From: Escherichia coli
GTDB lineage: Bacteria > Pseudomonadota > Gammaproteobacteria > Enterobacterales > Enterobacteriaceae
Reading direction: 5' to 3' (one strand)
NCBI RefSeq assembly: GCF_041886205.1
Contig: NZ_CP169029.1
Length of the DNA stretch: 64,000 nucleotides
Shown: piece by piece, positions 61,770-64,000 of the stretch
Layout of the letters: every line of letters begins with the position of its first letter
Numbering within the stretch: position 1 is the stretch's first letter
Notes under the pieces: generated by a model
The model's input: the letters and a program-made list of their open reading frames with translations, nothing else
Database searches by the model: none
Told to the model about the DNA's origin: nothing
Translations under genes and position numbers: made by a program

Positions 61770-62402
61770 ATGAAACGTTTAATTATGGCTACGATGGTCA
61801 CAGCAATTCTGGCATCTTCAACTGTATGGGCTGCTGATAATGCACCGGTAGCGGCACAACAGCAAACTCAGCAAGTTCAGCAAACCCAGAAAACGGCAGC
61901 AGCAGAGCGTATCTCTGAACAAGGTTTATATGCGATGCGTGACGTGCAGGTAGCGCGCCTGGCTCTGTTTCATGGCGATCCAGAAAAGGCAAAAGAACTG
62001 ACCAATGAAGCTTCCGCTTTGCTGTCAGATGACAGTACCGAATGGGCAAAGTTCGCTAAGCCAGGTAAAAAGACCAATCTCAATGATGACCAATATATTG
62101 TCATTAATGCATCTGTCGGAATTTCTGAGAGTTATGTAGCAACTCCCGAAAAAGAAGCCGCGATAAAAATTGCCAATGAAAAAATGGCGAAAGGGGATAA
62201 AAAGGGCGCAATGGAAGAGCTTCGCCTGGCCGGTGTTGGCGTAATGGAAAACCAATATCTGATGCCACTTAAACAGACTCGTAATGCACTTGCTGATGCG
62301 CAGAAACTGCTTGATAAAAAGCAATACTACGAGGCAAACCTGGCGCTTAAAGGTGCGGAAGATGGAATCATCGTCGATAGCGAAGCACTGTTTGTGAACT
62401 AA
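61770..62402 (+). CDS. yfdX: Periplasmic protein YfdX (EvgA-regulated)
   Basis: 210 aa; signal peptide; Q-rich stretch after signal; synteny. Confidence 0.8.
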
Positions 62403-62454
62403 TGCTGACAGGCAGTATATTGAGGTAAAGGATTTAACTCCCTCCAGCCGACAA

Positions 62455-62495
62455 TTTTTTATGACCACAATACGACAGGTTGTGGTCATAAAATT
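62455..62495 (+). terminator. Probable intrinsic terminator after yfdX
   Basis: 10-bp perfect inverted repeat ATGACCACAA...TTGTGGTCAT flanked by T and A tracts. Confidence 0.5.
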
Positions 62496-62645
62496 ATTTG
62501 GCGCTCGCGGTGCTATAAACTCGCATTTTATATTCCTCAAAGTAAACCGCAATAATCCCGTGTCATCACAAATCATTTATTATGTTATGTTTTATGGTAC
62601 GCTTTAAAAAGCGTAATCATACCCTTGCTTGTAAATCACCGGCGC

Positions 62646-62663
62646 TTCTTACAGTTGTAAGAA
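62646..62663. promoter_or_regulatory. EvgA box, consensus-perfect inverted repeat (TTCTTACA-GT-TGTAAGAA) upstream of frc
   Basis: Exact match to the EvgA consensus about 250 nt upstream of the frc ATG. Confidence 0.6.
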
Positions 62664-62914
62664 TAACATCACAAATGTCGCGACTCTCTCTGATTACCAC
62701 GAATCAATATTTATCATATTCTTCTTTTCGTCCTCACTACTTACCATGCAGAAAGGAATTGGAAGTGGCGATGAAATGATTTTCAGCACTTGATACAGGA
62801 TTTTAAAAATATCTAGTGCAGCTACGACGATATTTTGCGGGTTATTTATAGAAGATATTACGCCTTAAATAAACGCTAAATTAACACATATTTAATTAAC
62901 TAATAGGTATTGCT

Positions 62915-64000
62915 ATGTCAACTCCACTTCAAGGAATTAAAGTTCTCGATTTCACCGGTGTGCAATCTGGCCCATCTTGTACTCAAATGCTGGCCTGGTT
63001 TGGCGCTGACGTTATTAAAATTGAACGTCCCGGCGTTGGTGACGTAACGCGTCACCAGCTGCGAGATATTCCTGATATCGATGCGCTTTACTTCACCATG
63101 CTTAACAGTAACAAACGTTCTATTGAGTTAAATACCAAAACAGCGGAAGGCAAAGAGGTAATGGAAAAGCTGATCCGCGAAGCTGATATCTTAGTCGAGA
63201 ACTTTCATCCAGGGGCCATTGATCACATGGGCTTCACCTGGGAGCATATTCAAGAAATCAATCCACGTCTGATTTTTGGTTCGATCAAAGGGTTTGATGA
63301 GTGTTCGCCTTATGTGAATGTAAAAGCCTATGAAAACGTTGCTCAGGCAGCGGGTGGCGCGGCATCCACTACGGGTTTTTGGGATGGTCCGCCGCTGGTA
63401 AGCGCTGCAGCGTTGGGTGACAGCAACACCGGAATGCATTTGCTGATCGGTTTACTTGCTGCTTTGCTGCATCGCGAAAAAACGGGGCGTGGGCAACGAG
63501 TCACCATGTCAATGCAGGATGCCGTATTGAACCTTTGCCGCGTGAAATTACGTGACCAGCAGCGTCTCGATAAATTGGGTTATCTGGAAGAATACCCGCA
63601 GTATCCGAATGGTATATTTGGTGATGCAGTTCCCCGCGGTGGTAATGCAGGTGGTGGCGGTCAGCCTGGCTGGATCCTGAAATGTAAAGGCTGGGAAACC
63701 GATCCTAACGCCTATATTTATTTCACTATTCAGGAGCAAAACTGGGAAAACACCTGTAAAGCCATCGGCAAACCAGAATGGATTACCGATCCGGCATACA
63801 GTACAGCCCATGCACGACAGCCACATATTTTCGATATTTTTGCTGAAATCGAAAAATACACTGTCACTATTGATAAACATGAAGCGGTGGCCTATTTGAC
63901 TCAGTTTGATATTCCTTGTGCACCGGTTTTAAGTATGAAAGAAATTTCACTTGATCCCTCTTTGCGCCAAAGTGGCAGTGTTGTTGAAGTGGAACAACCG
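62915..64000 (+). CDS. frc: Formyl-CoA:oxalate CoA-transferase Frc (YfdW), N-terminal ~362 codons (3' end outside the window)
   Basis: Open frame to window end; N-terminus [37 protein letters not shown] typical of family III CoA-transferases; start coordinate +/-1. Confidence 0.85.

Follow-up and report, generated by a model that had tools for sequence, protein, structure and literature searches.

The inverted repeat upstream of frc

The E. coli DNA analysed here (a single stretch of 64 kb, referred to as the window) raises the question of whether a palindrome in front of the frc gene is an operator for EvgA, an acid-sensing response regulator of the NarL/FixJ family that switches on the oxalate-detoxifying genes frc-oxc. 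Our answer, to which a probability of about 0.93 is assigned, is that the palindrome is a high-affinity operator for an EvgA dimer in the promoter region of frc-oxc-yfdV-yfdE. The match, its significance, its conservation and the genomic context were computed here; EvgA binding and the EvgS/EvgA- and acid-dependent induction were taken from published papers. The features needed at the outset are the following:

62646-62663, no strand assigned: EvgA box in the frc promoter region, 0 mismatches to TTCYTACANNTGTARGAA
61770-62402, plus strand: yfdX, the gene upstream of frc, with its own EvgA boxes
62915-64000, plus strand: frc (formyl-CoA transferase), first 362 codons of a gene that exceeds the window end (RefSeq, A23 and K-12)

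The sequence TTCTTACAGTTGTAAGAA was located at 62646-62663 of the window. It reads TTCTTACA-GT-TGTAAGAA, a perfect 8-2-8 inverted repeat with the central GT outside the symmetry. Since yfdX ends at 62402 and frc starts at 62915 (the RefSeq annotation mapped onto the window), the spacer between them is 512 bp long and the box lies 251 nt before the frc ATG. A preliminary description, made from the letters of the window, had claimed an exact 8-2-8 repeat at this position, about 250 bp upstream of frc; the letters were confirmed in the window and the measured distance agreed with it. In K-12 coordinates the box corresponds to 2493506-2493523 (our own mapping).

The window region is 100% identical to E. 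coli strain A23, and the yfdX-frc spacer differs from that of K-12 MG1655 by a single base, at 62814. According to the RefSeq annotation of A23 and K-12, frc is the first gene of frc-oxc-yfdV-yfdE, and the genes are arranged as ypdA-alaC-ypdK-lpxP-yfdY-ypdI-yfdX-frc-oxc-yfdV-yfdE, with evgS coming next on the opposite strand. The window itself stops inside frc, and the placement of evgS, some 5 kb downstream, was read from the annotation of A23 and K-12. EvgA was also detected in the K-12 locus examined (L003).

Match to the EvgA consensus and matrix analysis

For the EvgAS regulon of E. coli, EvgA boxes were reportedly described by Masuda and Church in 2002/2003 and by Itou and co-workers in 2009. 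The consensus used here, TTCYTACA-N2-TGTARGAA, presumably corresponds to theirs; the string was absent from the results of the literature text search, and it was reproduced by five other sites located before EvgA targets. The frc box matched this consensus with no mismatch, and only 4.6e-5 exact matches were expected per 64 kb. When up to three mismatches were allowed, three matches were seen in the window against 0.46 expected, all of them in the upstream regions of yfdX and frc; with up to two mismatches, about 7e-4 matches were expected per kb. Hence, the agreement of the frc box with the EvgA consensus far exceeds chance.

Since the text search did not return the consensus, it was rebuilt from sequence, as a matrix. 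As training regions, the K-12 upstream regions of genes named in papers as EvgA targets were used, with one near-match taken from each. The matrix was symmetrised and included the sites of safA, ydeP, yegR, emrK/evgA and yfdX, leaving out the frc site. The EvgA-like sites of these regions, with the two found before yfdX in the window, are:

K-12, before safA: TGCCTACAGCTGTAAGAA
K-12, before ydeP: AGCCTACACCTGTAAGAA
K-12, before yegR: TTCCTACTTATGTAGGAA
K-12, between emrK and evgA: ATCCTACAGGCGTAAGAA
61617-61634, no strand assigned: EvgA box of the yfdX promoter, TTCCTACAATTGTAAGAC, 1 mismatch, 22.5 bits
61655-61672, no strand assigned: second, weaker EvgA-like site before yfdX, TAACTACAACTGTAAGAT, 3 mismatches, 15.7 bits

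With this leave-one-out matrix the frc box scored 25.0 of 26.7 bits, ranking first among the 63,983 positions of the window and above every training site of the matrix. The best site of the window outside the yfdX and frc promoters reached 12.4 bits. There is some circularity in this comparison, because the training sites had themselves been located via the consensus. The fit to EvgA recognition asserted in the preliminary description was thus upheld by both the mismatch count and the matrix scan that it had proposed. Of the seven sites compared, at six promoter regions, the frc box was the only one free of mismatches to the consensus.

In kind, the frc box does not differ from the other boxes of the EvgAS regulon (emrK/evgA, ydeP, safA-ydeO, yegR and yfdX), and it is itself one of the described sites. 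All of them show the same 18-bp 8-2-8 palindrome and share the regulator and the acid-induced response, while the frc locus also carries evgS. The distance from box to ATG is 251 nt for frc, close to the 243 nt of ydeP.

Several features of these other boxes were also recorded. The two EvgA-like sites of the yfdX promoter are separated by 38 bp from centre to centre, and at none of the other EvgA promoters examined was a second EvgA-like site detected. The autoregulatory emrK-evgA box is polymorphic within E. coli, unlike the frc box: the K-12 version given above (L003, 19729-19746) has two mismatches to the consensus, and that of strain SCPM-O-B-8794 (L089, 2514-2531), TTCCTACAGGTGTAAGAA, is a perfect match. 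Furthermore, the roughly 40 nt that follow the K-12 safA and ydeP boxes (L090, 4072-4089 and 6731-6748) are clearly related to each other (aatccgc..a.tgaagc.a.agtc.tattt), which suggests that both promoters arose by duplication of a single EvgA-dependent module. This module is absent from the frc and yfdX promoters.

Conservation of the box among E. coli genomes

The yfdX-frc spacer was present in 5410 of 5426 complete E. coli genomes and was quite polymorphic, with 1509 records at least 99% identical and 1062 at 90-95% identity. Nevertheless, the 30-mer at 62645-62674, comprising the box and 11 nt downstream, was identical in 5404 of 5407 complete E. coli records (99.9%), with three variants, whereas the adjacent flanking 30-mers were identical in only 1584 of 5345 (30%) and 2838 of 5406 (52%) records. 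In other words, E. coli keeps the frc box very tightly, next to 30-mers that differ in 48-70% of the records. Near-invariance amid variable flanks points to clear purifying selection acting on the site.

An alignment of seven lineages gave the same picture. Columns 243-280, that is, the box and the next 19 nt, formed one invariant block, and the bases just upstream varied. The additional conserved stretch is:

62664-62682, plus strand: 19 nt right after the box, invariant together with it in the seven-lineage alignment

This stretch is possibly part of the region protected or contacted by EvgA.

The spacer or the box was missing in about 16-20 of the 5426 genomes. In strain 1218KP (NZ_CM173878.1; L088, 2248-3063), a natural variant, yfdX has given way to an IS1 element and hypothetical genes of foreign origin, and the spacer is lost except for its last 63 bp, leaving frc-oxc without an EvgA box.

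Published evidence for EvgA control of frc-oxc

EvgA is stated to activate yfdXWUVE, in which yfdWUVE corresponds to frc-oxc-yfdV-yfdE, and the inverted repeats that precede yfdX and yfdWUVE are given as bound by EvgA in a passage that cites earlier work (PMC3720670, citing Masuda & Church, 2003). A review likewise places frc among the promoters strongly bound by EvgA (PMC8147483). In evgS-constitutive mutants, frc and oxc were among the most strongly induced genes, so expression of the gene behind the frc box is EvgS/EvgA-dependent, and EvgA sites were found solely at the already known direct targets (PMC4283999). The Frc protein increases with EvgA activity (bioRxiv 10.64898/2026.05.06.723403), and ribosome profiling placed yfdX, frc, oxc and yfdV among the most acid-induced genes (PMC10746267). 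A literature search for EvgA ChIP, DAP or SELEX data returned nothing specific to EvgA.

Taken with the motif, the gene context and the conservation, all of which fit, these reports support the frc box as a direct operator of the EvgA regulon, with binding known at second hand through the citing papers. Its assignment to the EvgAS regulon in the preliminary description is borne out by the box shared with five EvgA targets, by evgS about 5 kb away and by the published binding, as cited, and induction. By the same citation, the frc box is a known EvgA operator that has already been described (Masuda & Church, 2003), not a new one; that EvgA controls frc-oxc by way of this repeat has been known from publications since 2002-2003, and biologically nothing new is claimed. 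What is added here is limited to quantities, namely that the box is the sole mismatch-free site of the seven compared and that it is near-invariant in about 5400 genomes. The case also illustrates that a reader of sequence only can correctly spot a genuine operator.

Candidate promoters, a terminator-like hairpin and the transcription units

A hexamer-matrix scan and the search for terminators yielded the following features around the box:

62690-62717, plus strand: candidate weak sigma-70 promoter for frc, CTGATT-16-TATCAT, about 5 bits
62694-62722, plus strand: alternative candidate weak sigma-70 promoter for frc, TTACCA-17-TATTCT, about 5 bits
62457-62493, plus strand: terminator-like hairpin after yfdX, 15-bp stem with a T-rich tail behind it

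In the stretch from the box to frc, a consensus scanner detected nothing promoter-like. Finding no more than weak promoter-like hexamers downstream of the box is what is expected of an activator-dependent promoter. In the seven-lineage alignment, a natural variant changes the candidate -10 from TATCAT to TATTAT and so keeps a good -10. If transcription started from the candidate hexamers at 62690-62722, the box centre would lie at about -70 to -75 relative to the frc start, an upstream, class-I-like position, and the frc leader would be about 190 nt long. A literature search for a mapped frc transcription start, covering Kim et al. (2012), found none.

The single published promoter prediction for this spacer is a different one, TTTATA-18-AATAAT, given as the constitutive frc promoter (PMC3946193). 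It maps to 62527-62556, upstream of the frc box, a location that would not fit simple activation by EvgA from that box. As an EvgA-dependent promoter it was rejected on account of this position, and because it represents the best-hexamer guess inside a low-resolution SELEX peak.

The hairpin at 62457-62493 is stable (-25.4 kcal/mol, z -5.5). In strain GN03551 its stem carries a compensatory change from A-U to G-C, which argues for maintenance of the hairpin and for transcription of yfdX and frc as separate units. With boxes of their own and a strong hairpin between them, the two do look like separate units.

AT-richness and a possible role of H-NS

The GC content over 62400-62999, which covers the yfdX-frc spacer, was 0.36-0.38, against about 0.45-0.59 in the neighbouring coding sequence; that of the ypdI-yfdX spacer was 0.32-0.34. 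In vitro, by genomic SELEX, the frc-yfdX spacer was marked as holding an H-NS site, and it also holds a site for the RpoD holoenzyme (PMC3946193). The preliminary description had called this intergenic region AT-rich, as it proved to be, and typical of H-NS-silenced loci. The second claim stands as far as base composition and the in vitro H-NS site go; on silencing in vivo, the literature search found neither H-NS silencing nor hns-derepression data for frc.

These observations bear on the strongest alternative to the preferred reading, according to which the main effect of EvgA at the frc box would be anti-silencing, through displacement or remodelling of an H-NS filament over the AT-rich spacer, and not contact with RNA polymerase. 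The AT-rich spacer with its H-NS and RpoD-holoenzyme sites is in line with this, as are the position of the box, 251 nt from the ATG and probably at least 65 bp upstream of any start, and the geometry, in which no canonical overlap with a -35 is evident. Anti-silencing by SsrB and PhoP of Salmonella at H-NS-bound, AT-rich loci resembles the frc locus in the AT-rich spacer, the H-NS site and the activator site far upstream of the gene, with the difference that at frc both repression by H-NS and its counteraction by EvgA are putative. Against it, the literature search found no in vivo H-NS data for the spacer, and downstream of the box there is no strong constitutive promoter that silencing alone could explain. 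Moreover, direct activation from an upstream position is the mode of action of NarL/FixJ-family activators such as BvgA and UhpA. Anti-silencing as the main action of EvgA is therefore considered unlikely, although relief of H-NS silencing would contribute to frc activation.

Proposed mechanism of frc activation

Under the preferred reading, a direct EvgA operator, mildly acidic pH would lead EvgS, encoded about 5 kb away, to phosphorylate EvgA, and a dimer of EvgA-P would bind both TTCTTACA half-sites. This binding would turn on the very weak promoter just downstream, probably occluded by H-NS. Formyl-CoA transferase and oxalyl-CoA decarboxylase would then be made, which together constitute a proton-consuming oxalate cycle. 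Immediately upstream, yfdX would be controlled by EvgA as a unit of its own, with a separate box or boxes and a separate terminator.

The classical homologue of EvgAS is BvgAS of Bordetella. By analogy with BvgA and other NarL/FixJ-family sites, at which a response-regulator dimer uses its helix-turn-helix domain to bind an inverted repeat ahead of a weak promoter, the arrangement proposed for frc would be a familiar one. BvgA promoters combine a primary site with cooperative sites of lower affinity, which extend to the -35 region. Whereas BvgA promoters have such secondary sites, the frc box is without a detectable EvgA-like site downstream: in the search for a cooperative second site there, no 18-mer scored above 2 bits with the matrix. 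A candidate of this type, an ACA-NN-TGT core 20 bp downstream of the frc box, was discarded since its 18-mer did not exceed 2 bits. A secondary site common to other EvgA promoters was also looked for, and none was seen.

As the sole mismatch-free site of the seven, and an essentially invariant one, the frc box may be the operator of highest affinity in the regulon. An extended version of the mechanism adds to this that the oxalate cycle would be the first output of the system and that EvgA, from an unusually distal position at about -70 and with a leader of roughly 190 nt, would mainly lift H-NS silencing. Taken as a whole, this extension is doubtful, and quite improbable as it stands. Were it true, at low levels of EvgA-P the oxalate cycle would be switched on before the glutamate system.

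Other explanations of the repeat

A palindrome of this kind could also be used by, or be common to, another regulator of the NarL/LuxR family, such as RcsB, GadE or an RcsB heterodimer. The TAAGAA inside the frc half-site resembles RcsB half-sites. The Klebsiella homologue of yfdX lies beside KvhAS, the homologue of EvgAS, and RcsB binds its promoter (PMC6394985). Nevertheless, the arrangement TTCTTACA-N2-TGTAAGAA is common to the sites of safA, ydeP, yegR, yfdX and emrK/evgA, all of them EvgA targets, and the RcsB element KMRGAWTMWYCTGS differs from it in half-site orientation and spacing (PMC6394985). In addition, EvgS-constitutive alleles alone give maximal induction of frc (PMC4283999). 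A different regulator in place of EvgA is thus regarded as very unlikely, and additional use of the site by one such as RcsB as unlikely.

A palindrome arising by chance in AT-rich DNA, with no regulatory role, deserves mention since a perfect 8-2-8 repeat by itself is not rare. In shuffles keeping the local composition, 0.96 such repeats were expected per window, and two were seen. The second one, apparently meaningless, lies 48 bp upstream of the frc box. What speaks against chance is the exact match at the 16 positions of the consensus (4.6e-5 expected per window), the invariance of the site in all but three of 5407 records with variable flanks, and its location before a known EvgA-dependent gene; the probability left to this explanation is close to nil.

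Equally negligible is the idea that the repeat works as an RNA hairpin, an attenuator or processing site in a read-through or leader transcript: a 7-bp stem is possible, but it is weak (-6 kcal/mol, z -1.6, with 16 of 200 shuffles folding equally well), is not followed by a U-tract and probably lies upstream of the frc start, and Rfam gave only two chance-level matches on the spacer, both to eukaryotic families.

The second repeat, TACGCTTTAAAAAGCGTA at 62598-62615, is, together with that at 62646-62663, one of the sole two perfect 8-2-8 repeats in the 64-kb window. It showed three variable positions across the seven-lineage alignment, and no known motif was recognised in it. Because it is not conserved, this palindrome is probably a chance occurrence.

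frc clusters outside Escherichia

Among the matches listed, the enterobacteria were E. coli, Moellerella and Providencia. The closest non-Escherichia frc clusters among them were those of Moellerella wisconsensis and Providencia stuartii, with Frc proteins 86-87% identical. Both clusters comprise frc-oxc-yfdV and a second frc paralogue. They contain no yfdX, and neither evgA nor evgS was present within 10 kb; an EvgA-like box was sought in the two clusters and none was seen. In this small sample of the matches listed, the EvgA wiring of frc appears to accompany the presence of evgAS next door.

The second frc paralogue of M. wisconsensis and P. stuartii (L004 and L005, 10001-15630) occupies the place at which E. 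coli has yfdE, and in these Morganellaceae its aligned segments share 74-89% identity with Frc. The Providencia copy matches Frc in three separate segments and may therefore be frameshifted or a pseudogene.
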